Below are positions 24,901 to 48,900 of a stretch of 53,445 nucleotides of DNA, piece after piece. Below the pieces are notes generated by a model. That model ran no database searches, was not told the origin of the DNA, and saw only the letters and a list, made by a program, of their open reading frames with translations. Source of the DNA: Eledone cirrhosa (Eukaryota); NCBI GenBank assembly GCA_964016885.1, contig CAXHJY010001341.1:1-53445 (forward strand), read 5' to 3'. The first letter of the stretch is position 1; every line of letters begins with the position of its first letter. The position numbers and the translations under genes were made by a program.

Positions 24901-27900
24901 TTCTGTTGTTGTTGGTAGTGTTGGTACTGTTGTTGTTGATAGTGTTGGTTCTGTTGTTGTTGGTAGTGTTGGTTCTGTTGTTGTTGGTAGTGTTGGTTCT
25001 GTTGTTGTTGGTAGTGTTGGTTCTGTTGTTGTTGGTAGTGTTGGTTCTGTTGTTGTTGATAGTGTTGGTTCTGTTGTTGTTGGTAGTGTTGGTTCTGTTG
25101 TTGTTGGTAGTGTTGGTTCTGTTGTTGTTGGTAGTGTTGGTTCTGTTGTTGTTGGTAGTGTTGGTTCTGTTGTTGTTGGTAGTGTTGGTTCTGTTGTTGT
25201 TGGTAGTGTTGGTTCTGTTGTTGTTGGTAGTGTTGGTTCTGTTGTTGTTGGTAGTGTTGGTTCTGTTGTTGTTGGTAGTGTTGGTTCTGTTGTTGTTGGT
25301 AGTGTTGGTTCTGTTGTTGTTGGTAGTGTTGGTTCTGTTGTTGTTGGTAGTGTTGGTTCTGTTGTTGTTGGTAGTGTTGGTTCTGTTGTTGTTGGTAGTG
25401 TTGGTTCTGTTGTTGTTGGTAGTGTTGGTTCTGTTGTTGTTGGTAGTGTTGGTTCTGTTGTTGTTGGTAGTGTTGGTTCTGTTGTTGTTGGTAGTGTTGG
25501 TTCTATTGTTGTTGGTAGTGTTGGTTCTGTTGTTGTTGGTAGTGTTGGTTCTGTTGTTGTTGGTAGTGTTGGTTCTGTTGTTGTTGGTAGTGTTGGTTCT
25601 GTTGTTGTTGGTAGTGTTGGTTCTGTTGTTGTTGGTAGTGTTGGTCCTGTTGTTTTTGTTGGTAGTGTTGGTTCTGTTGTTGTTGGTAGTGTTGGTTCTG
25701 TTGTTGTTGGTGATGGTAGTGTTGGTTCTGTTGTTGTTGGTAGTGTTGGTCCTGTTGTTTTTGTTGGTAGTGTTGGTTCTGTTGTTGTTGGTAGTGTTGG
25801 TTCTGTTGTTGTTGATAGTGTTGGTTCTGTTGTTGTTGGTAGTGTTGGTCCTGTTGTTTTTGTTGGTAGTGTTGGTTCTGTTGTTGTTGGTAGTGTTGGT
25901 TCTGTTGTTGTTGGTGTTGGTAGTGTTGGTTCTGTTGTTGTTGGTAGTGTTGGTCCTGTTGTTTTTGTTGGTAGTGTTGGTTCTGTTGTTGTTGGTAGTG
26001 TTGGTTCTGTTGTTGTTGGTGTTGGTAGTGTTGGTTCTGTTGTTGTTGGTAGTGTTGGTCCTGTTGTTTTTGTTGGTAGTGTTGGTTCTGTTGTTGTTGG
26101 TAGTGTTGGTTCTGTTGTTGTTGATAGTGTTGGTTCTGTTGTTGTTGGTAGTGTTGGTTCTGTTGTTGATGGTAGTGTTGGTTCTGTTGTTGTTGATAGT
26201 GTTGGTTCTGTTGTTGTTGGTAGTGTTGGTTCTGTTGTTGTTGGTAGTGTTGGTTCTGTTGTTGTTGATAGTGTTGGTTCTGTTGTTGTTGGTGTTGGTA
26301 GTGTTGGTTCTGTTGTTGTTGGTAGTGTTGATTTTGTTGTTGTTGGTAGCGTTGTTTCTGTTGTTGTTGGAAGTGTTGGTTCTGTTGTTGTTGTTGGTAG
26401 TGATGGTTCTATTGTTGTTGGTAGTGATGGTTCTATTGTTGTTGGTAGTGTCGGTTCTGTTGTTGTTGGTAGTGTTGGTTCTGTTGTTGTTGGTAGTGTT
26501 GGTTCTGTTGTTGTTGGTAGTGTAGGTTCTGTTGTTGTTGGTAGTGTTGGTTCTGTTGTTGTTGGTAGTGTTGGTTCTGTTGTTGTTGGCAGTGTTGGTT
26601 CTATTGTTGTTGGTAGTGTTGGTTCTGTTGTTGTTGGTAGTGTTGGTTCTGTTGTTGTTGGTAGTGTTGGTTCTATTGTTGTTGGTAGTGTTGGTTCTGT
26701 TGTTGTTGGTAGTGTAGGTTCTGTTGTTGTTGGTAGTGTTGGTTCTGTTGTTGTTGGTAGTGTAGGTTCTGTTGTTGTTGGTAGTGTTGGTTCTGTTGTT
26801 GTTGGTAGTGTTGGTTCTGTTGTTGTTGGTAGTGTTGGTTCTGTTGTTGTTGATAGTGTTGGTTCTGTTGTTGTTGGTAGTGTTGGTTCTGTTGTTGTTG
26901 GTAGTGTTGGTTCTGTTGTTGTTGATAGTGTTGGTTTTGTTGTTGTTGGTGTTGGTAGTGTTGGTTCTGTTGTTGTTGGTAGTGTTGATTTTGTTGTTGT
27001 TGGTAGCGTTGTTTCTGTTGTTGTTGGTAGTGTTGGTTCTGTTGTTGTTGTTGGTAGTGATGGTTCTATTGTTGTTGGTAGTGATGGTTCTATTGTTGTT
27101 GGTAGTGTCGGTTCTGTTGTTGTTGGTAGTGTTGGTTCTGTTGTTGTTGGTAGTGTTGGTTCTGTTGTTGTTGGTAGTGTAGGTTCTGTTGTTGTTGGTA
27201 GTGTTGGTTCTGTTGTTGTTGGTAGTGTTGGTTCTGTTGTTGTTGGTAGTGTTGGTTCTATTGTTGTTGGTAGTGTTGGTTCTGTTGTTGTTGGTAGTGT
27301 TGGTTCTGTTGTTGTTGGTAGTGTTGGTTCTATTGTTGTTGGTAGTGTTGGTTCTGTTGTTGTTGGTAGTGTAGGTTCTGTTGTTGTTGGTAGTGTTGGT
27401 TCTGTTGTTGTTGGTAGTGTAGGTTCTGTTGTTGTTGGTAGTGTTGGTTCTGTTGTTGTTGGTAGTGTTGGTTCTGTTGTTGTTGGTAGTGTTGGTTCTG
27501 TTGTTGGTAGTGTTGGTTCTGTTGTTGTTGGTAGTGTAGGTTCTGTTGTTGTTGGTAGTGTAGGTTCTGTTGTTGTTGGTAGCGTTGGTTCTGTTGTTGT
27601 TGTTGGTAGTTTAGGTTCTGTTGTTGTTGCTCGTGTTGGTTCTGTTGTTGTTGGTAGTGTTGGTTCTATTGTTGTTGGTAGTGATGGTTCTATTGTTGTT
27701 GGTAGTGTTGGTTCTGATGTTGTTGGTAGTGTAGGTTCTGTTGTTGTTGGTAGTGTTGGTTCTGTTGTTGTTGGTAGTGTTGGTTCTGTTGTTGTTGGTA
27801 GTGTTGGTTCTATTGTTGTTGGTAGTGTTGGTTCTGTTGTTGTTGGTAGTGCAGGTTCTGTTGTTGTTGGTAGTGTAGGTTCTGTTGTTGTTGGTAGTGT

Positions 27901-30900
27901 TGGTTCTGTTGTTGTAGTTGGTAGTTTAGGTTCTGTTGTTGCTCGTGTTGGTTCTGTTGTTGTTGGTAGTGTTGGTTCTATTGTTGTTGGTAGTGTTGGT
28001 TCTGTTGTTGTTGGTAGTGTTGGTTCTGTTGTTGTTGGTAGTGTTGGTTCTATTGTTGTTGGTAGTGTTGGTTCTATTGTTGTTGGTAGTGTTGGTTCTG
28101 TTGTTGTTGGTAGTGTTGGTTCTGTTGTTGTTGGTAGTGTTGGTTCTATTGTTGTTGGTAGTGTTGGTTCTGTTGTTGTTGGTAGTGTTGGTTCTGTTGT
28201 TGTTGGTAGTGTTGGTTCTGTTGTTGTTAGTAGTGTTGGTTCTGTTGTTGTTGGTAGTGTTGGTTCTGTTGTTGTTGTTAGTGTTGGTTCTATTGTTGTT
28301 GGTAGTGTTGGTTCTGTTGTTGTTGGTAGTGTTGGTTCTGTTGTTGTTGGTAGTGTTGGTTCTATTGTTGTTGGTAGTGTTGGTTCTGTTGTTGTTGGTA
28401 GTGTTGGTTCTATTGTTGTTGGTAGTGTTGGTTCTGTTGTTGTTGGTAGTGTTGGTTCTGTTGTTGTTGGTAATGTTGGTTCTGTTGTTGTTGGTAGTGT
28501 TGGTTCTGTTGTTGTTGGTAATGTTGGTTCTGTTGTTGTTGGTAGTGTTGGTTCTGTTGTTGTTGGTAATGTTTGTTCTGTTGTTGTTGTTGGTAGTGTT
28601 GGTAGTGTTGTTGTTGGTAATGTTGGTTCTGTTGTTGTTGGTAGTGTTGGTTCTGTTGTTGTTGTTGGTAGTGTTGGTAGTGTTGTTGTTGGTAGTGTTG
28701 GTTCTGTTGTTGTTGGTAGTGTTGGTTCTGTTGTTGTTGGTAATGTTGGTTCTGTTGTTGTTGGTAGTGTTGGTTCTGTTGTTGTTGGTAATGTTGGTTC
28801 TGTTGTTGTTGGTAGTGTTGGTTCTGTTGTTGTTGGTAATGTTGCTTCTGTTGTTGTTGGTAGCGTTGGTTCTGTTGTTGTTGATAGTGTTGGTTCTGTT
28901 GTTGTTGGTAGTGTTGGTTCTGTTGTTGTTGGTAGTGTTGGTTCTGTTGTTGTTGGTAGTGTTGGTTCTGTTGTTGTTGGTAGTGTTGGTTCTGTTGTTG
29001 TTAGTAGTGTTGGTTCTGTTGTTGTTGGTAGTGTTGGTTCTGTTGTTGTTGGTAGTGTTGGTTCTGTTGGTGTTGGTAGTGTTGGTTCAGTTGTTGTTGG
29101 TATTGTTGGTTCTGTTGTTGTTGGTAGTGTTCGTTCTGTTGTTGTTGGTATTGTTGGTTCTGTTGGTGTTGGTATTGTTGGTTCTGTTGTTGTTGGTAGT
29201 GTTGGTTCTCTTGTTGTTGGTAGTGTTGGTTCTGTTGTTGTTGGTAGTGTTGGTTCTGTTGTTGTTGGTAATGTTGGTTCTGTTGTTGTTGGTAGTGTAG
29301 TGGTTGTTGTTGGTAGTGTAGTAGTAGTTGTTGGTAGTGTAGTGGTTGTTGTTGGTAGTGTAGGGGTTGTTGTTGGTAGTGTAGTGGTTGTTGTTGGTAG
29401 TGTAGTAGTCGTTGTTGGTAGTGCAGTGATTGTTGTTGGTAGTCTAGTGGTTGTTGTTGGTTGTGTAGTGGTGGTTGTTGGTAGTGTAGTGGTGGCTGTT
29501 GGTAGTGTAGTGGTGGTTTTTGGTAGTGTAGTGGTGGTTGTTGGTAGTGTAGTGGTGGTTGTTGGTAGTGTAGTGATTGTTGTTGGTAGTGTAGTAGTTG
29601 TTGTTGGTAGTGTAGTGGTTGTTGGTATTGTAGTGGTTGTTGTTGGTAGTGTAGTTGTTGTTGATGGTAGTGTAGTCGTTGTTGTTGGTAGCGTAGTGGT
29701 TGTTGGTATTGTAGTGGTTGTTGTTGGTAGTGTAGTTGTTGTTGTTGGTAGTGTAGTGGTTGTTGTTGGTAGTGTAGTTGTTGTTGTTGGTTGTGTAGTG
29801 GTTGTTGTTGGTAGTGTAGTGGTTGTTGTTGGTAGTGTAGTGGTGGTTGTTGGTAGTGTAGTGGTTGTTGTTGGTAGTGTAGTAGTTGTTGTTGGTAGTG
29901 TAGTGGTTGTTGTTGGTAGTGTAGTTGTTGCTGGTAGTGTAGTGGTTGTCGTTGGAAGTGTAGTGGTTGTTGTTAGTAGTGTAGTGGTTGTTGTTGGTAG
30001 TGTAGCGGTTGTTGTTGGTAGTGTAGCGGTTGTAGTTGGTAGTGTAGCGGTTGTTGTTGGTAGTGTAGCGGTTGTTGTTGGTAGTGTAGTGGTTGTTGTT
30101 GGTAGTGTAGTGGTTGTTGTTGGTAGTGTAGCGGTTGTAGTTGGTAGTGTAGTGGTTGTTGTTGGTAGTGTAGTGGTTGTTGTTGGTAGTGTAGTGGTTG
30201 TTGTTGGTAGTGTAGTGGTTGTTGTTGGTAGTGTAGTGGTTGTTGTTTGTAGTGTAGTGGTGGTTGTTGGTAGTATAGTGGTTGTTGGTGGTAGTGTAGT
30301 GATTGTTGTTGGTAGTGTAGTGGTTGTTGTTGGTAGAGTAGTGGTTGTTGTTGGTAATGTTGATTCTGTTGTTGTTGGTAGTGTTGGTTCTGTTGTTGTT
30401 GGTAGTGTTGGTTCTGTTGTTGTTGGTAGTGTTGGTTCTGTTGTTGTTGGTAGTGTTGGTTCTGTTGTTGTTGGTAGTGTTGGTTCTGTTGTTGTTGGTA
30501 TTGTTGGTTCTGTTGTTGTTGGTATTGTTGGTTCTGTTGTTGTTGGTAGTGTTGGTTCTGTTGTTGTTGGTATTGTTGGTTCTGTTGTTGTTGGTAGTGT
30601 TGGTTCTGTTGTTGTTGGTAGTGTTGGTTCTGTTGTTGTTGGTTGTATTGGTTCTGTTGTTGTTGGTAGTGTTGGTTCTGTTGTTGTTGGTAGTGTTGGC
30701 TCTGTTGTTGTTGTTGGTAGTGTTGGTTCTGTCGTTGTTGGTAGTTTTGTTCCTGTTGTTGTTGGTAGTGTTGATTCTGTTGTTGTTGTTGGTAGTGTTG
30801 TTTCTGTTGTTGTTGGTAGTGTTGTTTCTGTTGTTGTTGGTAGTGTTGGTTCTGTTGTTGTTGGTATTGTTGGTTCTGTTATTGTTGTTAGTGTTGGTTC

Positions 30901-33900
30901 TGTTGTTGTTGGTATTGTTGGTTCTGTTGTTGTTGGTAGTGTTGGTTCTGTTGTTTTTGGTAGTGTTGGTTCTGTTGTTGTTGTTGGTAGTGTTGTTTCT
31001 GTTGTTGTTGGTAGTGTTGTTTCTGTTGTTGTTGGTAGTGTTGGTTCTGTTGTTGTAGGTGTTGTTGGTTCTGTTGTTGTCGGTAGTGTTGGTTCTGTTG
31101 ATGTTGGTATTGTTGGTTCTGTTGTTGTTGGTAGTGTTGGTTCTGTTGTTGTTGTTGGTAGTGTTGTTTCTGTTGTTGTTGGTAGTGTTGTTTCTGTTGT
31201 TGTTGGTAGTGTTTGTTCTGTTGTTGTTGGTAGTGTTGGTTCTGTTGTTGTTGGTAGTGTTGGTTCTGTTGTTGTTGGTAGTGTTGGTTCTGTTGTTGGT
31301 GGTAGTGTTGGTTCTGTTGTTGTTGTTGGTAGTGTTGGTTCTGTTGTTGTTGTTAGTGCTGGTTCTGTTGTTGTTGTTGGTAGTGTTGGTTCTGTTGTTG
31401 TTTGTAGTGTTGGTTCTGTTGTTGTTGGTAGTGTTGGTTCTGTTCTTGTTGTTGGTAGTGTTGGTTCTGTTGTTGTTTGTAGTCTTGGTTCTGTTGTTGT
31501 TGGTAGTGTTGTTTCTGTTGTTGTTGTTGGTAGTGTTGGTTCTGTTGTTGTTGTTGGTAGTGTAGTGGTTGTTGTTGGTAGTGTAGTTGTTGTTGTTGTA
31601 GGTAGTGTAGTGGTTGCTGGTAGTGTAGTGGTGGTTGTTGGTAGTGTAGTGGTGGTTGTTGGTAGTGTAGTGGTTGTTGTGGGTAGTGTAGTGGTTGTTG
31701 TTGGTAGTGTAGTGGTTGTTGTTGGTAGTGTAGTGGTTGTTGTTGGTAGTGTAGTGGTGGTTGTTGGTAGTGTAGTAGTTGTTGTTGGTAGTGTAGTAGT
31801 TGTTGTTGGTAGTGTAGTGGTGGTTGTTGGTAGTGTAGTGGTTGTTGTTGGTAGTGTAGTGATTGTTGTTGGTAGTGTAGTGGTTGTTGTTGGTAGTGTA
31901 GTGGTTGTTGTTGGTAGTGTAGTAGTGGTTGTTGATGGTAGTGTAGTGGTTGTTGGTAGTGTAGTGGTTGTTGTTGGTAGTGTAGTGGTTGTTGTTGTTA
32001 GTGTAGTGGTTGTTGTTGGTAGCGTAGTGGTTGCTGTTGGTAGTGTAGTGGTTGTTGTTGGTAGTGTAGTAGTGGTTGTTGTTGGTAGTGTAGTGGTTGT
32101 TGGTAGTGTAGTGGTTGTTGTTGGTAGTGTAGTGGTTGTTGTTGGTAGTGTAGTGGTGGTTGTTGGTTGTGTAGTGGTGGTTGTTAGTTGTGTAGTGTTT
32201 GTTGGTAGCGTAGTGGTTGTTGTTGGTTGTGTATTGTTTGTTGGTAGTGTAGTGGTTGTTGTTGGTTGTGTAGTGGTGGTTGTTTGTTGTGTAGTGTTTG
32301 TTGGTTGTGTAGTGGTTGTTGTTGGTTGTGTAGTGTTTGTTGGTAGTGTAGTGGTTGTTGTTGGTTGTGTAGTGGTGGTTGTTGGTTGTGTAGTGTTTGT
32401 TGGTAGTGTCGTGGTTGTTGCTGGTAGTGTAGTGGATGTTGTTGGTAGTGTAGTGGTGGTTGTTTGTTGTGTAGTGGTTGTTGTTGGTTGTGTAGTGTTA
32501 GTTCGTATTGTAGTGGTTGTTGTTGGTAGTGCAGTGGTGGTTGTTGCTAGTGTAGTGTTTGTTCGTATTGTAGTGGTTGTTGTTGGTTGTGTAGTGGTGG
32601 TTGTTTGTTGTGTAGTGTTTCTTGGTAGTGTAGTGGTTGTTGTTGGTAGTGTAGTGGTTGTTGTTGGTAGTGTAGTGGTGGTTGTTGGTAGTGTAGTGGT
32701 GGTTGCTGGTAGTGTAGTGGTGGTTGTTGATAGTGTAGTGGTTGTTGTTGGTAGTGTAGTGATTGTTGGTAGTGTAGTGGTTGTTGTTGGTAGTGTAGTG
32801 GTTGTTGTTGGTTGTGTAGTGGTGGTTGTTTGTTGTGTAGTGTTTGTCGGTAGTGTAGTGGTTGTTGTTGTTAGTGTAGTGGTTGTTGTTGGTAGTGTAG
32901 TGGTTGTTGTTGGTAGTGTAGCGGTGGTTGTTGGTAGTGTAGTGGTGGTTGCTGGTAGTGTAGTTGTGGTTGTTGGTAGTGTAGTGGTTGTTGTTGGTAG
33001 TATAGTGTTTGTTGGTAGTGTAGTGGTTGTTGTTGGTAGTGTAATGGTTGTTGTTGGTAGCGTAGTGGTGTTTGTTGGTAGTGTAGTGGTTGTTGTTGGT
33101 ATTGTAGTGGTGGTTGTTGGTAGTGTAATGGTGGTTATTGGTAGTGTAGTGGTTGTTGTTGGTAGTGTAGTGGTTGTTGTTGGTAGTGTAGTGGTGGTTG
33201 TTGCTAGTGTAGTGGTTGTTGTTGGTTGTGTAGTGGTGGTTGTTGGTTGTGTAGTGTTTGTTGGTAGTGTAGTGGTTGTTGTTGGTTGTGTAGTGGTGGT
33301 TGTTGGTAGTGTAGTGGTTGTTGTTGGTAGTGTAGTGGTTGTTGTTGGTTGTGTAGTGGTTGTTGCTGGTAGTGTAGTGGTTGTTGTTGGTAGTGTAGTG
33401 GTTGTTGTTGGTAGTGTAGTGGTGGTTGTTGTTAGTGTAGTGGTTGTTGTTGGTAGTGTAGTGGTTGTTGTTGGTTGTGTAGTGGTTGTTGCTGGTAGTG
33501 TAGTGTTTGTTGTTGGTAGTGTAGTGGTTGTTGTTGGTTGTGTAGTGGTTGTTGTTAATAGTGTAGCGGTGGTTGTTGTTGGTAGTGTAGTGGCTGTTGT
33601 TGGTTGTGTAGTGGTTGTTGCTGGTAGTGTAGTGGTTGTTGTTGGTAGTGTAGTGGTTGTTGTTGGTAGTGTAGTGTTTGTTGTTGGTAGTGTAGTGGTT
33701 GTTGCTGGTAGTGTAGTGGTTGTTGTTGGTATTGTAGTGGTTGTTGTTGGTAGTGTAGTGGTTGTTGTTAATAGTGTAGCGGTGGTTGTTGTTGGTAGTG
33801 TAGTGGTTGTTGTTGGTAGTGTAGTGGTTGTTGTTGGTTGTGTAGTGGTTTTTGCTGGTAGTGTAGTGGTTGTTGTTGGTAGTGTAGTGGTTGTTGTTGG

Positions 33901-36900
33901 TTGTGTAGTGGTTGTTGCTGGTAGTGTAGTGGTTGTTGTTGGTAGTGTAGTGGTTGTTGTTGGTAGTGTAGTGGTTGTTGTTGGTAGTGTAGTGGTTGTT
34001 GTTGGTAGTGTAGTGGTTGTTGTTGGTAGTGTAGTGGTGGTTGTTGTTGCTAGTATAGTGGTTGCTGTTGGTAGTGTAGTGGTTGTTGTTGGTAGTGTAG
34101 TGGTTGTTGTTGGTAGTGTAGTCGTGGTTGTTGTTGGTAGTGTAGTCGTTGTTGTTGGTAGTGTAGTGGTTGTTGGTAGTGTAGTGGTTGTTGTTGGTTG
34201 TGTAGTGGTGGTTGTTGGTAGTGTAGTGGTGGTTGTTGGTTGTGTAGTGTTTGTTGGTTGTGTAGTGGTTGTTGTTGGTTGTGTAGTGTTTATTGGTTGT
34301 GTAGTGTTTGTTGGTAGTGTAGTGGTTGTTGTTGGTTGTATAGTGGTGTTTGTTGGTTGTGTAGTGTTTGTTGGTAGTGTAGTGGTGGTTGTTGGTAGTG
34401 TAGTGGTTGTTGTTGGTAGTGTAGTGGTGGTTGTTGGTTGTGTAGTGGTGGTTGTTGGTTGTGTAGTGTTTGTTGGTAGTGTAGTGGTTGTTGTTGGTAG
34501 TGTAGTGGTTGTTGGTAGTATAGTGGTTGTTGTTGGTAGTGTAGTGGTTGTTGTTGGTAGTGTAGTGGTGGTTGTTGGTAGTGTAGTGGATGTTGTTGGT
34601 TGTGTAGTGGTGGTTGTTGGTTGTGTAGTGTTTGTTGTTGTTGGTTGTGTAGTGTTTGTTGGTAGAGTAGTGGTTGTTGTTGGTAGTGTAGTGGTTGTTG
34701 TTGGTAGTGTAGTGTTTGTTGGTAGTGTTGTGGTTGTTGTTGGTATTGTAGTGGTTGTTGTTGGTAGCGTAGTGGTTGTTGTTGATAGTGTAGCGGTGGT
34801 TGTTGTTGGTAGTGTAGTGGTTGTTGTTGGTTGTGTAGTGGTTGTTGCTGGTAGTGTAGTGGTTGTTGTTGGTAGTGTAGTGGTTGTTGTTGGTTGTGTA
34901 GTGGTGGTTGTTGGCTGTGTAGTGTTTGTTGTTTGTGTAGTGGTTGTTGTTGGTATTGTAGTGTTGGTAGTTGGTAGTGTTGTGGTGGTTGTTGTTGGTA
35001 GTGTAGTGGTTGTTGTTGGTAGTGTAGTGGTTGTTGGTAGTGTAGTGGTTGTTGTTGGTAGTGTAGTGGTTGTTGGTAGTGTAGTGGTTGTTGTTGGTAG
35101 TGTAGTGGTTGTTGTTGGTAGTGTAGTGGTTGTTGTTTGTAGTGTAGTGGTTGTTGTTGGTAGTATAGTGGTTGTTCTTGGTAGTGTAGCGGTTGTTGTT
35201 GGTAGTGTACTGGTTGTTGTTGGTAGTGTACTGGTTGTTGTTGGTAGTGTACTGGTTGTTGTTGGTAGTGTAGTGGTTGTTGCTGGTAGTGTAGTGGTTG
35301 TTGTTGGTAGTGCAGTGGTGGTTGTTGGTAGTGTAGTGGTGGTTGTTGGTAGTGTAGTGGTTGTTGTTGGTAGTGTAGTGGTTGTTGTTGGTTGTGTAGT
35401 GGTGGTTGTTGGTTGCGTAGTGTTTGTTGGTAGTGTAGTGGTTGTTGTTGGTAGTGTAGTGGTTGTTGTTGGTAGTGTAGTGGTTGATGTTGGTAGTGTA
35501 GTGGTTGTTGTTGGTAGTGTAGCGGTTGTTGTTGGTAGTGTAGTGGTTGTTGTTGGTAGTGTACTGGTTGTTGTTGGTTGTGTAGTTGTTGTTGTTGGTT
35601 GTGTAGTGTTTGTTGGTAGTGTAGTGGTTGTTGTTGGTAGTGTAGTGGTGATTGTTGGTAGTGTAGTGGTTGTTGTTGGTAGTGTAGTGGTTGTTGTTGG
35701 TTGTGTAGTGGTGGTTGTTGGTTGTGTAGTGTTTGTTGGTAGTGTAGTGGTTGTTGTTGGTAGTGTAGTGGTGGTTGTTGGTAGTGTAGTGATTGTTGTT
35801 GGTAGTTTAGTGGTTGTTGTTGGTAGTGTAGTGGTTGTGGTTGGTAGTGTAGTGTTTGTTGTTGGTAGTGTAGTGGTTATTGGTAGTGTAGTGGTTGTTG
35901 TTGGTAGTGTAGTGGTTGTTGTTGGTAGTGTAGTGGTGGTTGTTGGTAGTGTAGTCGTTGTTGTTGGTTGTGTAGTGGTGGTTGTTGGTAGTGTAGTGGT
36001 GGTTGTTGGTTGTGTAGTGTTTGTTGGTTGTGTAGTGGTTGGTGTTGGTTGTGTAGTGTTTATTGGTTGTGTAGTGTTTGTTGGTAGTGTAGTGGTTGTT
36101 GTTGGTTGTATAGTGGTGTTTGTTGGTTGTGTAGTGTTTGTTGGTAGTGTAGTGGTTGTTGTTGGTAGTGTAGTGGTTGTTGTTGGTAGTGTAGTTGTGG
36201 TTGTTGGTAGTGTAGTGGTTGTTGTTGGTATTGTAGTGGTTGTTGTTGGTAGTGTAGTGGTGGTTGTTGGTAGTGTAGTGGTTGTTGTTGGTAGTGTAGT
36301 GGTGGTTGTTGGTTGTGTAGTGGTGGTTGTTGGTTGTCTAGTGTTTGTTGGTAGTGTAGTGGTTGTTGTTGGTAGTGTAGTGGTTGTTGGTAGTGTAGTG
36401 GTTGTTGTTGGTAGTGTAGTGGTTGTTGTTGGTAGTGTAGTGGTGGTTGTTGGTAGTGTAGTGGTTGTTATTGGTTGTGTAGTGGTGGTTGTTGGTTGTG
36501 TAGTGTTTGTTGTTAGAGTAGTGGTTGTTGTTGGTAGTGTAGTGGTTGTTGTTGGTAGTGTAGTGTTTGTTGGTAGTGTAGTGGTTGTTGTTGGTAGTGT
36601 AGTGGTGGTTGTTGGTTGTGTAGTGTTTGTTGGAAGTGTAGTGGTTGTTGTTGGTAGTGTAGTGGTGATTGTTGGTAGTGTAGTGGTTGATGTTAGTAGT
36701 GTAGTGGTGGTTGTTGGTAGTGCAGTGGTGGTTGTTGGTGGTGTAGTGTTTGTTGGTAGTGTAGTGGTTGTTGTTGGTAGTATAGTGGTGGTTGTTGGTA
36801 GTGTAGTGGTTGATGTTGGTAGTGTAGTGGTGGTTGTTGGTAGTGTAGTGGTTGTTGTTGGTAGTGTAGTGGTTGTTGTTGGTAGTGTAGTGGTGGTTGT

Positions 36901-39900
36901 TGGTAGTGTAGTGGTTGTTGTTGGTATTGTAGTGGTGGTTGTTGGTAGTGAAGTGGTGGTTGTTGGTAGTCTTGTGGTTGTTGTTGGTAGTGTAGTGTTG
37001 GTTGTTGGATGTGTAGTGGTGGTTGTTGGTTGCATAGTGTTTGTTGGTAGTGTAGTGGTTGTTGTTGGTAGTGTAGTGGTTGTTGGTAGTGTAGTGGTTG
37101 TTGTTGGTAATGTAGTGGTGGTTGTTGGTAGTGTAGTGGTTGTTGTTGGTAGTGTAGTGGTTGTTGTTGGTATTGTAGTGGTGGTTGTTGGTAGTGTAAT
37201 GGTGGTTGTTGGTAGTGTAGTGGTTGTTGTTGGTAGTGTAGTGGTTGTTGTTGATAGTGTAGTGGTGGTTGTTGGTAGTGTAGTGGTTGTTGTTGGTTGT
37301 GTAGTGGTGGTTGTTGGTTGTGTAGTGTTTGTTGTTAGTGTAGTGGTTGTTGTTGGTATTGTAGTGTTGGTAGTTGGTAGTGTAGTGGTCGTTGTTGGTA
37401 GTGTAGTGGTTGTTGTTGGTAGTGTTAGTGTTGTAGTGGTTGTTGTTGGTAGTGTAGTGGTTGTTGTTGTTTGTGTAGTGGTTGTTGTTGTAGTGGAGTG
37501 GGTGTTGCTGTTGGTAGTGTAGTGGTTGTTGTTGGTAGTGTAGCGGTTGTTGTTGGTAGTGTAGTGGTTGTTGTTGGTAGTGTAGTGGTGGTTGTTGGTA
37601 ATGTAGTGGTTGTTGTTGGTAGTGTAGTGGTTGTTGTTGGTTGTGTAGTGGTTGTTGCTGGTAGTGTAGTGGTTGTTGTTGGTAGTGTAGTGGTGGTTGT
37701 TGGTAATGTAGTGGTTGTTGTTGGTAGTGTAGTGGTTGTTGTTGGTTGTGTAGTGGTTGTTGCTGGTAGTGTAGTGGTTGTTGTTGGTAGTGTAGTGGTG
37801 GTTGTTGGTAATGTAGTGGTTGTTGTTGGTAGTGTAGTGGTTGTTGTTGGTTGTGTAGTGGTGGTTGTTGGTAATGTAGTGGTTGTTGTTGGTAGTGTAG
37901 TGGTTGTTGTTGGTAGTGTAGTGGTGGTTGTTGGTAATGTAGTGGTTGTTGTTGGTAGTGTAGTGGTTGTTGTTGGTTGTGTATGTTGGTAATGTAGTGG
38001 TTGTTGTTGGTAGTGTAGTGGTTGTTGTTGGTTGTGTAGTGGTTGTTGCTGGTAGTGTAGTGGTTGTTGTTGGTTGTGTAGTGGTTGTTGCTGGTAGTGT
38101 AGTGGTTGTTGTTGGTTGTGTAGTGGTTGTTGTTGGTAGTGTAGTGGTTGTTGTTGGTAGTGTAGTGGTTGTTGTTGGTAGTGTAGTGGTTGTTGTTGAT
38201 AGTGTAGTGGTTGTTGTTGGTAGTGTAGTGGTTGTTGTTGGTTGTGTAGTGGTTGTTGCTGGTAGTGTAGTGGTTGTTGTTGGTAGTGTAGTGGTTGTTG
38301 TTGGTAGTGTAGTGGTTGTTGTTGGTAGTGTAGTGGTTGTTGTTGGTAGTGTAGTGGTTGTTGTTGGTAGTGTAGAGGTTGTTGTTGGTAGTGTAGTGGT
38401 TGTTGTTGGTAGTGTAGTGGTTGTTGTTGGTAGTGTAGTGGTTGTTGTTGGTAGTGTAGAGGTTGTTGTTGGTAGTGTAGTGGTTGTTGTTGGTAGTGTA
38501 GTGGTTGTTGTTGGTAGGTTAGTGGTTGTTGTTGGTAGTGTAGTGGTTGTTGTTGGTAGTGTAGTGGTTGTTGTTGGTAGTGTAGTGGTTGTTGTTGGTA
38601 GTGTAGAGGTTGTTGTTGGTAGTGTAGTGGTTGTTGTTGGTAGTGTAGTGGTTGTTGCTGGTAGTGTAGTGGTTGTTGTTTTTTGTGTAGTGGTTGTTGC
38701 TGGTAGTGTAGTGGTTGTTGTTGGTAGTGTAGTGGTTGTTGTTGGCAGTGTAGTGGTTGTTGTTAGTAGTGTAGTGGTTGTTGTTAGTAGTGTAGTAGTT
38801 GTTGTTGGTAGTGTAGTGGTTGTTGTTGGTTGTGTAGTGGTTGTTGCTGGTAGTGTAGTGGTTGTTGTTGGTAGTGTAGTGGTTGTTGTTGGTAGTGTAG
38901 TGGTTGTTGTTGGTAGTGTAGTGGTTGTTGTTGGTAGTGTAGTGGTTGTTGTTGGTAGTGTAGTGGTTGTTGTTGGTAGTGTAGTGGTTGTTGTTGGTAG
39001 TGTAGAGGTTGTTGTTGGTAGTGTAGTGGTTGTTGTTGGTAGTGTAGTGGTTGTTGCTGGTAGTGTAGTGGTTGTTGTTTGTTGTGTAGTGGTTGTTGCT
39101 GGTAGTGTAGTGGTTGTTGTTGGTAGTGTAGTGGTTGTTGTTAGTAGTGTAGTGGTTGTTGTTAGTAGTGTAGTGGTTGTTGTTGGTAGTGTAGTGGTTG
39201 TTGTTGGTTGTGTAGTGGTTGTTGCTGGTAGTGTAGTGGTTGTTGTTGGTAGTGTAGTGGTTGTTGTTGGTAGTGTAGTGGTTGTTGTTGGTAGTGTAGT
39301 GGTTGTTGTTGGTAGTGTAGTGGTTGTTGTTGGTAGTGTAGTGGTTGTTGTTGGTAGTGTAGTGGTTGTTGCTGGTAGTGTAGTGGTTGTTGTTTGTTGT
39401 GTAGTGGTTGTTGCTGGTAGTGTAGTGGTTGTTGTTGGTAGTGTAGTGGTTGTTGTTGGTAGTGTAGTGGTTGTTGTTAGTAGTGTAGTGGTTGTTGTTG
39501 GTAGTGTAGTGGTTGTTGTTGGTAGTGTAGTGGTTGTTGTTGGTAGTGTAGTGGTTGTTGTTGGTAGTGTAGAGGTTGTTGTTGGTAGTGTAGTGGTTGT
39601 TGTTGGTAGTGTAGTGGTTGTTGTTGGTAGTGTAGCGGTTGTTGTTGGTAGTGTAGTGGCTGTTGTTGGTAGTGTAGTGGTTGTTGTTGGTAGTGTAGTT
39701 GTTGTTGTTGATTGTGTAGTGGTTGTTGCTTGTAGTGTAGTGGTTGTTGTTGGTAGTGTAGTGGTTGTTGTTGGTAGTGTAGTGGTTGTTGTTGGTAGTG
39801 TAGTGGTTGTTGTTGGTAGTGTAGTGGCTGTTGTTGGTAGTGTAGTGGTTGTTGTTGGTAGTGTAGTGGTGGTTGTTGGTTGTGTAGTGGTTCTTGCTGG

Positions 39901-42900
39901 TAGTGTAGTGGTTGTTGTTGGTTGTGTAGTGGTTGTTGTTGGTAGTGTAGTGGTTGTTGTTGGTAGTGTAGTGGTTGTTGTTGGTAGTGTAGTGGTTGTT
40001 GTTGGTAGTGTAGTGGTTGTTGTTGGTAGTGTAGTGGTTGTTGTTGGTAGTGTAGTGGTTGTTGTTGGTAGTGTAGTGGTGGTTGTTGTTGGTAGTGTAG
40101 TGGTTGTTGTTGGTAGTGTAGTGGTTGTTGTTGGTAGTGTAGTGGTTGTTGTTGGTAGTGTAGTGGTTGTTGTTGGTAGTGTAGTGCGTGTTGTTGGTAG
40201 TGTAATGGTTGTTGTTGGTAGTGTAGTGGTGGTTGTTGTTGGTAGTGTAGTGGTTGTTGTTGGTAGTGTAGTGGTTGTTGTTGGTAGTGTAGTGGTTGTT
40301 GTTGGTAGTGTAGTGGTTGTTGTTGGTAGTGTAGTGGCTGTTGTTGGTAGGGTAGTGGTGGTTGTTGTTGGTAGTGTAGTGGTTGTTGTTGGTAGTGTAG
40401 CAGTGGTTGTTGTTGGTAGTGTAGTGGTTGTTGTTGTTTGTGTAGTGGTTGTTGTTGATAGTGGAGCGGTGGTTGCTGTTGGTAGTGTAGTGGTTGTTGT
40501 TGGTAGTGTAGCGGTTGTTGTTGGTAGTGTAGTGGTTGTTGTTGGTAGTGTAGTGGTGGTTGTTGGTAATGTAGTGGTTGTTGTTGGTAGTGTAGTGGTT
40601 GTTGTTGGTTGTGTAGTGGTTGTTGCTGGTAGTGTAGTGGTTGTTGTTGGTAGTGTAGTGGTGGTTGTTGGTAATGTAGTGGTTGTTGTTGGTAGTGTAG
40701 TGGTTGTTGTTGGTTGTGTAGTGGTTGTTGCTGGTAGTTTAGTGGTTGTTGTTGGTAGTGTAGTGGTGGTTGTTGGTAATGTAGTGGTTGTTGTTGGTAG
40801 TGTAGTGGTTGTTGTTGGTTGTGTAGTGGTGGTTGTTGGTAATGTAGTGGTTGTTGTTGGTAGTGTAGTGGTTGTTGTTGGTAGTGTAGTGGTGGTTGTT
40901 GGTAATGTAGTGGTTGTTGTTGGTAGTGTAGTGGTTGTTGTTGGTAGTGTAGTGGTTGTTGCTGGTAGTGTAGTGGTTGTTGTTGGTTGTGTAGTGGTTG
41001 TTGCTGGTAGTGTAGTGGTTGTTGTTGGTTGTGTAGTGGTTGTTGTTGGTAGTGTAGTGGTTGTTGTTGGTAGTGTAGTGGTTGTTGTTGGTAGTGTAGT
41101 GGTTGTTGTTGATAGTGTAGTGGTTGTTGTTGGTAGTGTAGTGGTTGTTGTTGGTTGTGTAGTGGTTGTTGCTGGTAGTGTAGTGGTTGTTGTTGGTAGT
41201 GTAGTGGTTGTTGTTGGTAGTGTAGTGGTTGTTGTTGGTAGTGTAGTGGTTGTTGTTGGTAGTGTAGTGGTTGTTGTTGGTAGTGTAGAGGTTGTTGTTG
41301 GTAGTGTAGTGGTTGTTGTTGGTAGTGTAGTGGTTGTTGTTGGTAGTGTATTGGTTGTTGTTGGTAGTGTAGTGGTTGTTGTTGGTAGTGTAGAGGTTGT
41401 TGTTGGTAGTGTAGTGGTTGTTGTTGGTAGTGTAGTGGTTGTTGTTGGTAGGTTAGTGGTTGTTGTTGGTAGTGTAGTGGTTGTTGTTGGTAGTGTAGTG
41501 GTTGTTGTTGGTAGTGTAGTGGTTGGTGTTGGTAGTGCAGTGGTTGTTGTTGGTAGTGTAGTGGTTGTTGTTGGTAGTGTAGTGGTGGTTGTTGGTAGTG
41601 TAGCGGTTGTTGTTGGTAGTGTAGTGGTTGTTGTTGGTTGTGTAGTGGTGGTTGTTGGTTGTGTAGTGTTTGTTGTTAGTGTAGTGGTTGTTGTTGGTAG
41701 TGTAGTAGTTGTTGTTGGTAGTGTAGTGGTTGTTGTTGGTTGTGTAGTGGTTGTTGCTGGTAGTGTAGTGGTTGTTGTTGGTAGTGTAGTGGTTGTTGTT
41801 GGTAGTGTAGTGGTTGTTGTTGGTAGTGTAGTGGTTGTTGTTGGTAGTGTAGTGGTTGTTGTTGGTAGTGTAGTGGTTGTTGTTGGTAGTGTAGTGGTTG
41901 TTGTTGGTAGTGTAGAGGTTGTTGTTGGTAGTGTAGTGGTTGTTGTTGGTAGTGTAGTGGTTGTTGCTGGTAGTGTAGTGGTTGTTGTTTGTTGTGTAGT
42001 GGTTGTTGCTGGTAGTGTAGTGGTTGTTGTTGGTAGTGTAGTGGTTGTTGTTAGTAGTGTAGTGGTTGTTGTTAGTAGTGTAGTGGTTGTTGTTGGTAGT
42101 GTAGTGGTTGTTGTTGGTTGTGTAGTGGTTGTTGCTGGTAGTGTAGTGGTTGTTGTTGGTAGTGTAGTGGTTGTTGTTGGTAGTGTAGTGGTTGTTGTTG
42201 GTAGTGTAGTGGTTGTTGTTGGTAGTGTAGTGGTTGTTGTTGGTAGTGTAGTGGTTGTTGTTGGTAGTGTAGTGGTTGTTGCTGGTAGTGTAGTGGTTGT
42301 TGTTTGTTGTGTAGTGGTTGTTGCTGGTAGTGTAGTGGTTGTTGTTGGTAGTGTAGTGGTTGTTGTTGGTAGTGTAGTGGTTGTTGTTAGTAGTGTAGTG
42401 GTTGTTGTTGGTAGTGTAGTGGTTGTTGTTGGTAGTGTAGTGGTTGTTGTTGGTAGTGTAGTGGTTGTTGTTGGTAGTGTAGAGGTTGTTGTTGGTAGTG
42501 TAGTGGTTGTTGTTGGTAGTGTAGTGGTTGTTGTTGGTAGTGTAGCGGTTGTTGTTGGTAGTGTAGTGGCTGTTGTTGGTAGTGTAGTGGTTGTTGTTGG
42601 TAGTGTAGTTGTTGTTGTTGATTGTGTAGTGGTTGTTGCTTGTAGTGTAGTGGTTGTTGTTGGTAGTGTAGTGGTTGTTGTTGGTAGTGTAGTGGTTGTT
42701 GTTGGTAGTGTAGTGGTTGTTGTTGGTAGTGTAGTGGCTGTTGTTGGTAGTGTAGTGGTTGTTGTTGGTAGTGTAGTGGTGGTTGTTGGTTGTGTAGTGG
42801 TTCTTGCTGGTAGTGTAGTGGTTGTTGTTGGTTGTGTAGTGGTTGTTGTTGGTAGTGTAGTGGTTGTTGTTGGTAGTGTAGTGGTTGTTGTTGGTAGTGT

Positions 42901-45900
42901 AGTGGTTGTTGTTGGTAGTGTAGTGGTTGTTGTTGGTAGTGTAGTGGTTGTTGTTGGTAGTGTAGTGGTTGTTGTTGGTAGTGTAGTGGTGGTTGTTGTT
43001 GGTAGTGTAGTGGTTGTTGTTGGTAGTGTAGTGGTTGTTGTTGGTAGTGTAGTGGTTGTTGTTGGTAGTGTAGTGGTTGTTGTTGGTAGTGTAGTGCGTG
43101 TTGTTGGTAGTGTAATGGTTGTTGTTGGTAGTGTAGTGGTGGTTGTTGTTGGTAGTGTAGTGGTTGTTGTTGGTAGTGTAGTGGTTGTTGTTGGTAGTGT
43201 AGTGGTTGTTGTTGGTAGTGTAGTGGTTGTTGTTGGTAGTGTAGTGGCTGTTGTTGGTAGGGTAGTGGTGGTTGTTGTTGGTAGTGTAGTGGTTGTTGTT
43301 GGTAGTGTAGTGGTGGTTGTTGTTGGTAGTGTAGTGGCTGTTGTTGGTAGTGTAGTGGTGGTTGTTGTTGGTAGTGTAGTGGTTGTTGTTGGTAGTGTAG
43401 TGGTTGTTGTTGGTATTGTAGTGGTTGTTGTTGGTAGTGTAGTGGTTGTTGTTGGTAGTGTAGTGGTTGTTGTTGGTAGTGTAGTAGTTGTTGTTGGTAG
43501 CGTAGTGGTTGTTGTTGGTTGTGTAGTGGTTGTTGTTGGTAGTGTAGTAGTTGTTGTTGGTAGTGTAGTGGTTGTTGTAGGTAGTGTAGTGGTTGTTGTT
43601 GGTAGTGTAGTGGTTGTTGTTGGTAGCGTAGTGGTTGTTGTTGGTTGTGTAGTGGTTGTTGTTGGTAGTGTAGTGGTTGTTGTTGGTAGTGTAGTGGTTG
43701 TTGGAAGTGTAGTGGTTGTTGTTGGTAGTGTAGTGGTTGTTGGTAGTGTAGTGGTTGTTGGTAGTGTAGTGGTTGTTGTTGGTAGTGTAGTGGTTGTTGG
43801 TAGTGTAGTGGTTCTTGTTGGTAGTGTAGTGGTTGTTGTTGGTAGTGTAGTGGTTGTTGGTAGTGTAGTGGTTGTTGTTGGTAGTGTAGAGGTTGTTGTT
43901 GGTAGTGTAGTGGTTGTTGTTGTTAGTGAAGTGGTTGTTGCTGGTAGTGTAGTGGTTGTTGTTTGTTGTGTAGTGGTTGTTGCTGGTAGTGTAGTGGTTG
44001 TTGTTGGTAGTGTAGTGGTTGTTGTTTGTAGTGTTCTGGTTGTTGTTGGTAGTGTAGTGGTTGTTGTTGGTAGTGTAGTGGTTGTTGTTGGTAGTGTAGT
44101 GGTTGTTGTTGGTAGTGTAGTGGTTGTTGTTGGTAGTGTAGAGGTTGTTGTTGGTAGTGTAGTGGTTGTTGTTGGTAGTGTAGTGGTTGTTGTTGGTAGT
44201 GTAGCGGTTGTTGTTGGTAGTGTAGTGGTTGTTGTTGGTAGTGTAGTGGTTGTTGTTGGTAGTGTAGAGGTTGTTGTTGGTAGTGTAGTGGTTGTTGTTG
44301 TTAGTGAAGTGGTTGTTGCTGGTAGTGTAGTGGTTGTTGTTTGTTGTGTAGTGGTTGTTGCTGGTAGTGTAGTGGTTGTTGTTGGTAGTGTAGTGGTTGT
44401 TGTTTGTAGTGTTCTGGTTGTTGTTGGTAGTGTAGTGGTTGTTGTTGGTAGTGTAGTGGTTGTTGTTGGTAGTGTAGTGGTTGTTGTTGGTAGTGTAGTG
44501 GTTGTTGTTGGTAGTGTAGAGGTTGTTGTTGGTAGTGTAGTGGTTGTTGTTGGTAGTGTAGTGGTTGTTGTTGGTAGTGTAGCGGTTGTTGTTGGTAGTG
44601 TAGTGGTTGTTGTTGGTAGTGTAGTGGTTGTTGTTGGTAGTGTAGTTGTTGTTGTTGATTGTGTAGTGGTTGTTGCTTGTAGTGTAGTGGTTGTTGTTGG
44701 TAGTGTAGTGGTTGTTGTTGGTAGTGTAGTGGTTGTTGTTGGTAGTGAAGTGGCTGTTGTTGGTAGTGTAGTGGTTGTTGTTGGTAGTGTAGTGGTTGTT
44801 GTTGGTAGTGTAGTGGTTGTTGTTGGTAGTGTAGTGGTTGTTGTTGGTAGTGTAGTGGTTGTTGTTGGTAGTGTAGTGGTGGTTGTTGTTGGTAGTGTAG
44901 TGGTTGTTGTTGGTAGTGTAGTGGTTGTTGTTGGTAGTGTAGTGGTTGTTGTTGGTAGTGTAGTGGTTGTTGTTGGTAGTGTAGTGCGTGTTGTTGGTAG
45001 TGTAATGGTTGTTGTTGGTAGTGTAGTGGTGGTTGTTGTTGGTAGTGTAGTGGTTGTTGTTGGTAGTGTAGTGGTTGTTGTTGGTAGTGTAGTGGTTGTT
45101 GTTGGTAGTGTAGTGGTTGTTGTAGGTAGGGTAGTGGTGGTTGTTGTTGGTAGTGTAGTGGTTGTTGTTGGTAGTGTAGTGGTGGTTGTTGTTGGTAGTG
45201 TAGTGGCTGTTGTTGGTAGTGTAGTGGTGGTTGTTGTTGGTAGTGTAGTGGTTGTTGTTGGTAGTGTAGTGGTTGTTGTTGGTAGTGTAGTGGTTGTTGT
45301 TGGTAGTGTAGTGGTTGTTGTTGGTAGTGTAGTGGTTGCTGTTGGTAGCGTAGTGGTTGTTGTTGGTTGTGTAGTGGTTGTTGTTGGTAGTGTAGTAGTT
45401 GTTGTTGGTAGTGTAGTGGTTGTTGTTGGTAATGTAGTGGTTGTTGTTGGTAGTGTAGTGGTTGTTGTTGGTAGCGTAGTGGTTGTTGTTGGTTGTGTAG
45501 TGGTTGTTGTTGGTAGTGTAGTGGTTGTTGTTGGTAGTGTAGTGGTTGTTGGAAGTGTAGTGGTTGTTGTTGGTAGTGTAGTGGTTGTTGGTAGTGTAGT
45601 GGTTGTTGGTAGTGTAGTGGTTGTTGTTGGTAGTGTAGTGGTTGTTGGTAGTGTAGTGGTTGTTGTTGGTAGTGTAGTGGTTGTTGTTGGTAGTGTAGTG
45701 GTTGTTGTTGGTAGTGTAGAGGTTGTTGTTGGTAGTGTAGTGGTTGTTGTTGTTAGTGAAGTGGTTGTTGCTGGTAGTGTAGTGGTTGTTGTTTGTTGTG
45801 TAGTGGTTGTTGCTGGTAGTGTAGTGGTTGTTGTTGGTAGTGTAGTGGTTGTTGTTTGTAGTGTTCTGGTTGTTGTTGGTAGTGTAGTGGTTGTTGTTGG

Positions 45901-48900
45901 TAGTGTAGTGGTTGTTGTTGGTAGTGTACTGGTTGTTGTTGGTAGTGTACTGGTTGTTGTTGGTAGTGTAGTGGTTGTTGTTCGTTGTGTAGTGGTTGTT
46001 GCTGGTAGTGTAGTGGTTGGTGTTGGTAGTGCAGTGGTTGTTGTTGGTAGTGTAGTGGTTGTTGTTGGTAGTGTAGTGGTGGTTGTTGGTAGTGCATTGG
46101 TTGTTGTTGGTAGTGTAGTGGTTGTTGTTGGTTGTGTAGTGGTGGTTGTTGGTTGTGTAGTGGTTGTTGGTAGTGTAGTGGTTGTTGTTGGTAGTGTAGT
46201 GGTTGTTGTTGGTAGTGTAGTGTTTGTTGTTGGTAGTGTAGTGGTTGTTGTTGGTAGTGTAGCGGTTGTTGTTGGTAGTGTAGTGGTTGTTGTTGGTTGT
46301 GTAGTGGTGGTTGTTGGTTGTGTAGTGTTTGTTGTTAGTGTAGTGGTTGTTGTTGGTAGTGTAGTGGTTGTTGTTGGTAGTGTAGTGTTTGTTGTTGGTA
46401 GTGTAGTGGTTGTTGTTGGTAGTGTAGCGGTTGTTGTTGGTAGTGTACTGGTTGTTGTTGGTAGTGTAGTGGTTGTTGTTGGTTGTGTAGTGGTTGATGC
46501 TGGTAGTGTAGTGGTTGTTGTTGGTAGTGTAGTGGTGGTTGTTGGTAGTGTAGTGGTGGTTGTTGGTAGTGTAGTGGTTGTTGTTGGTAGTGTAGTCGTT
46601 GTTGTTGGTTGTGTAGTGGTGGTTGTTGGTTGTGTAGTGTTTGTTGGTAGTGTAGTGGTTGTTGTTGGTTGTGTAGTGTTTGTTGCTGGTAGTGTAGTGG
46701 TTGTTGTTGGTAGTGTAGTGGTTGTTGTTGGTAGTGTAGTGGTTGTTGTTGGTTGTGTAGTTGTTGTTGTTGGTTGTGTAGTGTTTGTTGGTAGTGTAGT
46801 GGTTGTTGTTGGTAGTGTAGTGGTGGTTGTTGGTAGTGTAGTGGTTGTTGTTGATTGTGTAGTGGTTGTTGCTTGTAGTGTAGTGGTTGTTGTTGGTAGT
46901 GTAGTGGTTGTTGTTGGTAGTGTAGTGGTTGTTGTTGGTAGTGTAGTGGTTGTTGTTGGTAGTGTAGTGGCTGTTGTTGGTAGTGTAGTGGTTGTTGTTG
47001 GTAGTGTAGTGGTTGTTGTTGGTAGTGTAGTGGTTGTTGTTGTTAGTGAAGTGGTTGTTGCTGGTAGTGTAGTGGTTGTTGTTTGTTGTGTAGTGGTTGT
47101 TGCTGGTAGTGTAGTGGTTGTTGTTGGTAGTGTAGTGGTTGTTGTTTGTAGTGTTCTGGTTGTTGTTGGTAGTGTAGTGGTTGTTGTTGGTAGTGTAGTG
47201 GTTGTTGTTGGTAGTGTACTGGTTGTTGTTGGTAGTGTAGTGGTTGTTGTTCGTTGTGTAGTGGTTGTTGCTGGTAGTGTAGTGGTTGGTGTTGGTAGTG
47301 CAGTGGTTGTTGTTGGTAGTGTAGTGGTTGTTGTTGGTAGTGTAGTGGTGGTTGTTGGTAGTGCAGTGGTTGTTGTTGGTAGTGTAGTGGTTGTTGTTGG
47401 TTGTGTAGTGGTGGTTGTTGGTTGTGTAGTGTTTGTTGGTAGTGTAGTGGTTGTTGTTGGTAGTGTAGTGGTTGTTGTTGGTAGTGTAGTGTTTGTTGTT
47501 GGTAGTGTAGTGGTTGTTGTTGGTAGTGTAGCGGTTGTTGTTGGTAGTGTAGTGGTTGTTGTTGGTTGTGTAGTGGTGGTTGTTGGTTGTGTAGTGTTTG
47601 TTGTTAATGTAGTGGTTGTTGTTGGTAGTGTAGTGGTTGTTGTTGGTAGTGTAGTGTTTGTTGTTGGTAGTGTAGTGGTTGTTGTTGGTAGTGTAGCGGT
47701 TGTTGTTGGTAGTGTACTGGTTGTTGTTGGTAGTGTAGTGGTTGTTGTTGGTTGTGTAGTGGTTGATGCTGGTAGTGTAGTGGTTGTTGTTGGTAGTGTA
47801 GTGGTGGTTGTTGGTAGTGTAGTGGTGGTTGTTGGTAGTGTAGTGGTTGTTGTTGGTAGTGTAGTTGTTGTTGTTGGTTGTGTAGTGGTGGTTGTTGGTT
47901 GTGTAGTGTTTGTTGGTAGTGTAGTGGTTGTTGTTGGTTGTGTAGTGTTTGTTGCTGGTAGTGTAGTGGTTGTTGTTGGTAGTGTAGTGGTTGTTGTTGG
48001 TAGTGTAGTGGTTGTTGTTGGTTGTGTAGTTGTTGTTGTTGGTTGTGTAGTGTTTGTTGGTAGTGTAGTGGTTGTTGTTGGTAGTGTAGTGGTGGTTGTT
48101 GGTAGTGTAGTGGTTGTTGTTGGTAGTGTAGTGGTTGTTGTTGGTTGTGTAGTCGTGGTTGTTGGTTGTGTAATGTTTGTTGGTAGTGTAGTGGTTGTTG
48201 TTGGTAGTGTAGTGGTGGTTGTTGGTAGTGTAGTGGTTGTTGCTGGTAGTGTAGTGGTTGTTGTTGGTAGTGTAGTGGTTGTTGTTGGTAGTTTAGTGGT
48301 TGTTGTTGGTTGTGTAGTGGTTCTTGTTGGTAGTGTAGTGGTTGTTGTTGGTAGTGTAGTGGTTGTTGGTAGTGTAGTGGTTGTTGTTGGTAGTGTAGTG
48401 GTTGTTGGTAGTGTAGTGGTTGTTGTTGGTAGTGTAGTGGTGGTTGTTGGTAGTGTAGTGGTTGTTGTTGGTAGTGTAGTGGCTGTTGTTGGTAGTGTAG
48501 AGGTGGTTGTTGTTGGTAGTGTAGTGGTTGTTGTTGGTAGTGTAGTGGTTGTTGTTGGTAGTGTAGTGGTTGTTGTTGGTAGTGTAGTGGTTGTTGTTGG
48601 TAGTGTAGTGGTTGTTGTTGGTAGTGTAGAGGTTGTTGTTGGTAGTGTAGTGGTTGTTGTTGGTAGTGAAGTGGTTGTTGCTGGTAGTGTAGTGGTGGTT
48701 GTTGGTAGTGTAGTGGTTGTTGTTGGTAGTGTAGTGGCTGTTGTTGGTAGTGTAGTGGTGGTTGTTGTTGGTAGTGTAGTGGTTGTTGTTTGTAGTGTAG
48801 TGGTTGTTGTTGGTAGTGTAGTGGTTGTTGTTGGTAGTGTAGCGGTTGTTGTTGGTAGTGTACTGGTTGTTGTTGGTAGTGTACTGGTTGTTGTTGGTAG

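Follow-up and report, generated by a model that had tools for sequence, protein, structure and literature searches.

A 164-codon Asn/His/Tyr island in a mucin-type repeat of Eledone cirrhosa: most likely an assembly artifact, otherwise a very young neutral allele

One block of 164 codons in a long, uninterrupted mucin-type reading frame from Eledone cirrhosa departs from the Thr/Pro repeat around it and reads (NNNHYTT)n instead. This out-of-phase island (37492..37983 on the minus strand, residues 5155-5318 of the frame) is the shadow frame of the ordinary repeat, held between two private lesions, and not a remodeled domain. Our verdict is that an assembly artifact is most likely and that, otherwise, the island is a neutral allele, very young and of a type already known. 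Throughout, "the window" refers to the whole stretch of DNA that was analyzed, 53,445 nt (contig CAXHJY010001341.1 of assembly GCA_964016885.1).

The minus strand of the window is open from 1 to 53445, giving 17,815 codons with no stop and with both ends open. Thr accounts for 57% of these codons (10,094), Pro for 19% (3,363), Leu for 12% (2,120), and Glu for 7% (1,196). The mucin-type Thr/Pro repeat region occupies all of 1..53445, with no nonrepeat domain in the window, and has the hallmark of a mucin PTS domain, a single open frame filled by a long tandem repeat rich in Pro, Thr, and Ser. It is important to remember that "mucin" here denotes the PTS-type repeat only, and that the window contains the repeat alone, without flanks. 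The upstream part of the frame (31600..53445) is an LPTTTTT/QPTTTTT domain built of 874 units of 21 nt, and the downstream part (1..29300) is an LPTTTEPT domain of mostly 24- and 27-nt units.

This host frame looks coding, because the other two minus frames carry 115 and 35 stops, all unit-length variants in the window outside the island are triplets, and none of the 39 varying positions among 966 Glu positions has been converted to TAA. The plus strand also has long open frames, 2-37522 (12,506 codons) and 37964-53443 (5,160 codons), which break at the island; judging from their codons, they would be antisense shadows of the coding repeat. The preliminary description had placed plus-frame stops at 37520-37522 and 37990-37992 where the minus frame continues, and these positions are correct.

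Between 37983 and 37491 the normal 21-nt LPTTTTT unit is offset by one base. A codon-phase hidden Markov model (HMM) run over the whole window finds two switches only, at 37983 and ~37496, at penalties of 9, 12, and 20; lowering the penalty to 6 adds two 7-nt blips (37372-37365 and 34969-34962). An AC-dinucleotide phase scan produced many short false switches and was rejected for phase calling in favor of the HMM.

The island comprises 61 Asn, 43 Thr, 27 His, 23 Tyr, 5 Ile, 4 Ser, and 1 Arg, with no Pro and no stop, which bears out the earlier report of an Asn/His/Tyr-rich NNNHYTT segment of ~164 residues that leaves the open reading frame unbroken. Asn thus makes up 37% of the island, His 16%, and Tyr 14%. 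All 23 Tyr of the entire 17,815-codon frame and 27 of its 29 His are found here; Ser plus Thr falls from 58% to 29%, and there are no N-glycosylation sequons. This NNNHYTT composition needs no special explanation, because ACN-rich codons read one base off yield it domain-wide: the same shifted frame taken from any other part of the 21-nt domain gives the identical peptide. Read in the Thr frame, the island consists of ordinary LPTTTTT/QPTTTTT units, and comparison with its paralogous copy revealed no sequence change or expansion private to the island between the two junctions.

The paralog is copy A (40380..43310) of a tandem duplication of ~2.9 kb in the window, whose copy B lies at 37430..40400. 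Copy A is in phase throughout, as had been claimed for ~40450-40950. The island lies at the 3' end of copy B, bordering an older and more heterogeneous part of the array, and both lesions are private to that copy. Read from their upstream ends, A and B do not differ across the first ~1.6 kb; a ~350-nt non-colinear patch follows, and then the colinear block of 855 nt that holds the island, in which there are 2 substitutions once the extra 55 nt described below are set aside. Since the lesions are confined to B and the copies are otherwise near-identical (about 2 substitutions in 2.5 kb), the island must be younger than a very recent duplication.

In the non-colinear patch (41696-41350 in A, 38786-38438 in B), an upstream block recurs in B with private changes, a pattern suggestive of conversion or unequal exchange later than the duplication. 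Read in the shifted frame, copy A would meet one stop, from an ACT-AAA variant at ~40740. We considered whether a stop had been removed from B and rejected this, as the context suggests that the variant is private to A.

The entry lesion is a perfect 55-nt tandem duplication (37929..38038, minus strand; 38038-37984 followed by 37983-37929) with a blunt junction at 37984/37983. It has no microhomology and can be placed in one way only, which sets it apart from a homopolymer-type lesion. It is the sole perfect tandem of nontriplet period between 8 and 199 nt in the window. It reads equally well as the duplication of a 63-nt trimer from which 8 nt were lost (+63-8). The preliminary description had given the two junctions as -8 and -1, net -9, and as the only nontriplet indels. 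That there are just two switches stands; the value of -8 is valid against the 21-nt unit only, and against the paralog the entry lesion is +55 nt, for a net change of +54 with the exit. The lesion lies at the one place in the 855-nt block where A and B differ in copy number, and it is out of phase although the array offers in-phase homology everywhere. Being blunt, out of phase, and on the sole copy-number difference, the entry lesion favors an error.

The exit lesion (37490..37503, minus strand) combines a 1-nt deletion at 37491/37490 with substitutions at 37499, 37502, and 37503, in agreement with the extra mismatches previously noticed in 37499-37504. An older relative of the exit unit (34768..34812, minus strand) matches, at 34800, the 18-nt core of copy A with 1 mismatch, and within the window the core of copy B has no other match within 1 mismatch. 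Words as short as 5-9 nt across the two junctions occur nowhere else in the window. All four exit changes are therefore derived in B, with A ancestral. That some of the mismatches might instead be private to A was considered and rejected on the evidence of the same unit at 34812.

Three of the four B-only changes remove bases diagnostic of A: two revert them to the array consensus, and the deleted base falls in a column where the A-type unit (T) and the consensus (C) differ. The fourth adjoins a reverted base. Such a mosaic at diagnostic columns is as expected of merged reads from competing repeat variants, and we take it as support for an error. The deletion is homopolymeric only against the consensus unit, and not against the ancestral A unit. 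With about 2 changes per 2,450 nt as the background rate, four within 14 nt have a Poisson probability of 7e-10 per site, uncorrected for scanning; being clustered they are not independent, which argues for one event rather than stepwise mutation.

Taken together, this anatomy, the direction of the changes, and the rates expected by chance (below) lead us to infer a technical cause. On the sequence alone, the island is probably a local consensus failure, in assembly or in polishing, within this extended coding repeat, and the real sequence of copy B would most likely be in phase and the same as copy A. The entry would reflect a 63-nt trimer, differing in copy number between the paralogs, of which either a part only (55 nt) was written or 8 nt were cut off. 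The exit would be a mosaic, one base short, into which reads from rare A-type units and from generic units had been merged. The two shifts would happen to cancel, and the near-stop-free shifted frame would leave the assembled frame open while giving NNNHYTT for 164 codons.

Failures of this sort have precedents. Polishing is reported to create false frameshifts in repeats (10.1101/2021.07.02.450803; PMC12212083; PMC6352337; PMC9712336), and described cases include Racon false frameshifts in CHM13 (10.1101/2021.07.02.450803), Drosophila Sgs1 (PMC6352337), and consensus frame errors in mucin domains (PMC9712336). Like the cases reported there, the island has frameshifts that are private to one assembly, clustered, and set in a long Thr-rich repeat, with rare diagnostic bases lost. 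It differs in that those errors are mostly 1-nt homopolymer slips, whereas one lesion here is a blunt +55/-8 event, and in being, so far, a putative error.

Several observations run counter to the artifact explanation. The window has no other phase switch in 53 kb despite 69 A-runs of 4-6 nt, a sign of a high-quality consensus, and classic homopolymer slips are seen at neither lesion. For HiFi assemblies of human genomes, independent calls are reported to back about 78% of the genes that carry frameshifts (PMC12212083). Further, when two random nontriplet indels were placed independently, the whole window stayed open in only 1.9% of trials; errors must therefore cluster, or else the window was chosen for its open frame. 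The window measures exactly 17,815 in-frame codons; such a fit would arise by chance 1 time in 9 and may point to a cut made by reading frame.

Whether natural selection or the choice of window supplied the long open frame, a compensated pair like this one, in size and in frame, is then the typical result. At 79% of positions in the 21-nt domain, the shifted frame runs for 490 nt without a stop. Among simulated pairs that left the window open, the median gap between indels was 812 nt, 35% of gaps were ≤500 nt, and 73% of pairs fell in the Asn/His/Tyr frame.

The spacing of the lesions also deserves mention. It is 493-502 nt under the -8 reading, and the coincidence with 500 is weaker under the +55 reading. 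The default window of Racon is 500 nt, with end trimming. Racon splices nonoverlapping windows, and accuracy is reported to rise with overlapping ones (PMC5411768); VeChat works with 500-bp windows (PMC9636371). Random compensating pairs bracket 500 nt in 0.5% of trials and any multiple of 500 in 1.5%, in what is a post hoc test. Other private variants do not fall significantly on a 500-nt grid: 5 of 86 lie within 10 nt (3.6 expected) and 12 within 20 nt (7.1 expected). Our search of the literature for deletions at window boundaries in Racon polishing returned none.

Of the two readings offered in the preliminary description, local consensus errors or a real island, the former is now the better supported, by lesions in one copy, changes at or beside diagnostic bases, and the copy-number site. 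That the island is real, with paired frameshifts switching a block of the mucin stalk into its shadow frame in one step and leaving it glycan-poor, His/Tyr-rich, and possibly self-associating, we regard as doubtful. Most of that probability belongs to a very recent, effectively neutral pair of compensating frameshifts in copy B, which we consider unlikely in its own right. Here, a single error-prone repair or template-switch event would have patched ~490 nt and left a scar at each end, with no truncated intermediate. Selection would have retained only the in-frame outcome, and a 164-residue patch without dense O-glycans would be tolerated in a stalk of >17,800 residues.

The sequence is clean elsewhere, the lesions are unlike homopolymer errors, and compensation is predicted under purifying selection, all of which speak for such a pair. 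The lesions are also close to where a recent duplication ends, and clustered changes near rearrangement junctions are familiar from work on copy-number variation. Real compensated pairs are known: 6 genes are of high confidence in PMC8935012, with pairs enriched in poorly conserved regions, and in PMC4914097 the human-mouse pairs judged likely real, each at least 30 bp, number 371. The exit changes count against it, since they fall on or beside diagnostic columns and toward the array consensus, which would be rare for random mutation; a conversion tract, in turn, would not produce the novel base and the gap. A stepwise route would pass through truncation at 36340 or 37427.

In kind, the island does resemble the compensatory pairs (pCFMs) of PMC8935012: its two nontriplet indels sum to a multiple of three (+55/-1 or -8/-1), the 164 codons between them have no stop, the ancestral in-phase state can be identified, and the region is weakly constrained. 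As reported there, 624 candidate genes were reduced to 27 seen in more than one species and then to the 6 of high confidence, whose pairs span 7-99 nt, and the indels taken were of 1-2 nt only. The high-confidence pairs were found in several species or transcripts, whereas the island spans 493 nt and is present in one copy of one assembly. Independent observation is what makes a pCFM pair credible, and the island is so far known from the one assembly.

If one lesion alone were real, the locus would carry a truncating allele and its open frame would be owed to a single chance error. Mucin repeats are indeed known to carry frameshift alleles, as for MUC1 in ADTKD (PMC12776774), and the entry and exit lesions differ in kind. 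This explanation would nevertheless need an error of the right size before the next stop, at 36340 if the entry only is real or at 37427 if the exit only is real, and we place it last among the readings considered. The MUC1 disease alleles reported in PMC12776774 truncate, whereas the frame of the island returns to the Thr repeat phase.

A further reading is that frame switching made a functional, selected Asn/His/Tyr island, acting in metal binding, in amyloid-like self-association, or as a protease-accessible gap. The composition given above would permit this (His, Tyr, and Asn abundant, no Pro, Ser plus Thr halved), and translation of a mucin repeat in a second frame has a reported precedent in MUC1-ARF (PMC5074479). 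Like MUC1-ARF and the MUC1 frameshift alleles, the island shows that a mucin tandem repeat in a second frame gives a long repeat peptide of different composition. MUC1-ARF, however, starts at its own AUG in an unchanged gene (PMC5074479), whereas the island depends on a shift in and out at the level of DNA. The peptide is moreover the automatic shadow frame of the repeat, and the island, younger than the A/B duplication, is unchanged and unexpanded. With a mechanical composition, no private changes, and no homolog carrying the island in the searches described next, the functional claim goes unsupported, and we consider it very improbable.

Searches of other proteins bear on the same point. No ortholog of the array was found when 8,000 candidates (644-2000 aa) were scored, which gave 18 matches. 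The motif NNNHY is present in 0 of these 18 and in 0 of the best 150 of 658 low-complexity matches, among which there was also no ortholog of the array. With the island alone as the query, there was no match at E≤0.001 among 1,819 candidates, in a weak search subject to composition bias. Full-text searches of the literature for EPTLPTT, LPTTTTTLP, TTEPTLP, and NNNHYTT found no mention. A search of sequencing runs with 33000-42999 listed 8, of which 5 shared a small fraction of its words (0.07-0.11, in no case half or more), and no RNA run was among those listed. The best match in the search of representatives was a "mucin-like protein" of Argonauta hians (P0082, GAB1599636.1; E 2e-59, 76% identity over the matched stretches), which, like the array, has a seven-residue (V/I)PTTTTT repeat with TNT variants. 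Unlike the array, it has Val for Leu, no EPT domain, a repeat of only ~790 aa, and no Asn/His/Tyr island; we would therefore call it a low-complexity look-alike and make no claim of orthology.

A Thr-rich and an Asn/His/Tyr-rich stretch occur together in 4 of the best 150 of the 658 matches, which could be taken in favor of a function. The look-alikes are nephronectin of Silurus meridionalis (P0005/P0019), zonadhesin of Trichonephila (P0197), a mucin-3A-like protein of Haliotis (P0185), and a protein of Lamellibrachia (P0010). In Haliotis, Lamellibrachia, and Trichonephila, the Asn/His/Tyr-rich stretches lie beside Thr repeats in single gene models. The catfish protein has an Asn/His-rich island of ~125 residues (~385-510) inside a Thr linker and then returns to the Thr frame. 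Judging by the peptide pattern, these stretches may likewise have arisen by frameshift, most clearly in the catfish and the spider, which return to the Thr repeat; the catfish island is probably the same kind of paired frameshift. Two gene models, both from one contig, carry it, and none of 62 other nephronectin clusters does (the record of the congener S. asotus is partial), which argues against a function. Islands of this type thus recur yet are private to single assemblies, and this fits errors or young alleles rather than a conserved function.

What is at stake differs with the outcome. If the island is an error, it illustrates that the shifted frame of Thr-rich coding repeats rarely has stops, so that a gene with paired consensus errors looks intact, and that false Asn/His/Tyr "domains" enter annotations, as may apply to the catfish nephronectin model. 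If it is real, a compensated frameshift of unusual length has been captured very soon after it arose, with new protein sequence made from a mucin repeat; its 493 nt would be about five times the 99-nt maximum among the high-confidence pairs of PMC8935012. In that event, the look-alikes of catfish, spider, abalone, and tubeworm would be independent cases of the same route, and the island would bear on whether the scarcity of frameshifts in exonic VNTRs reflects selection, a question raised in PMC12776774.

The more unusual item in the window is not the island but the uninterrupted PTS repeat frame of at least 53 kb. The mucin-domain exons of human MUC2, MUC5AC, and MUC5B are given as 8,994, 10,371, and 10,893 nt (PMC9712336), and the host repeat frame is about five times the length of those of MUC5AC and MUC5B (10.4 and 10.9 kb).

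The two repeat types interdigitate between 29300 and 31550, where an EPT block (~30350-31550) is followed by LPTTTTT units again (~29300-30350) and then by the main EPT domain. The array also has age layers: clusters of private variants number 17 upstream (16 kb), 37 in the middle (9.4 kb), and 34 downstream (28 kb). The upstream 16 kb has been homogenized by nested duplications with offsets of 1.3-6.3 kb, all multiples of three, and the island is located at the border between this upstream layer (37430-53445) and the middle layer (28000-37430).
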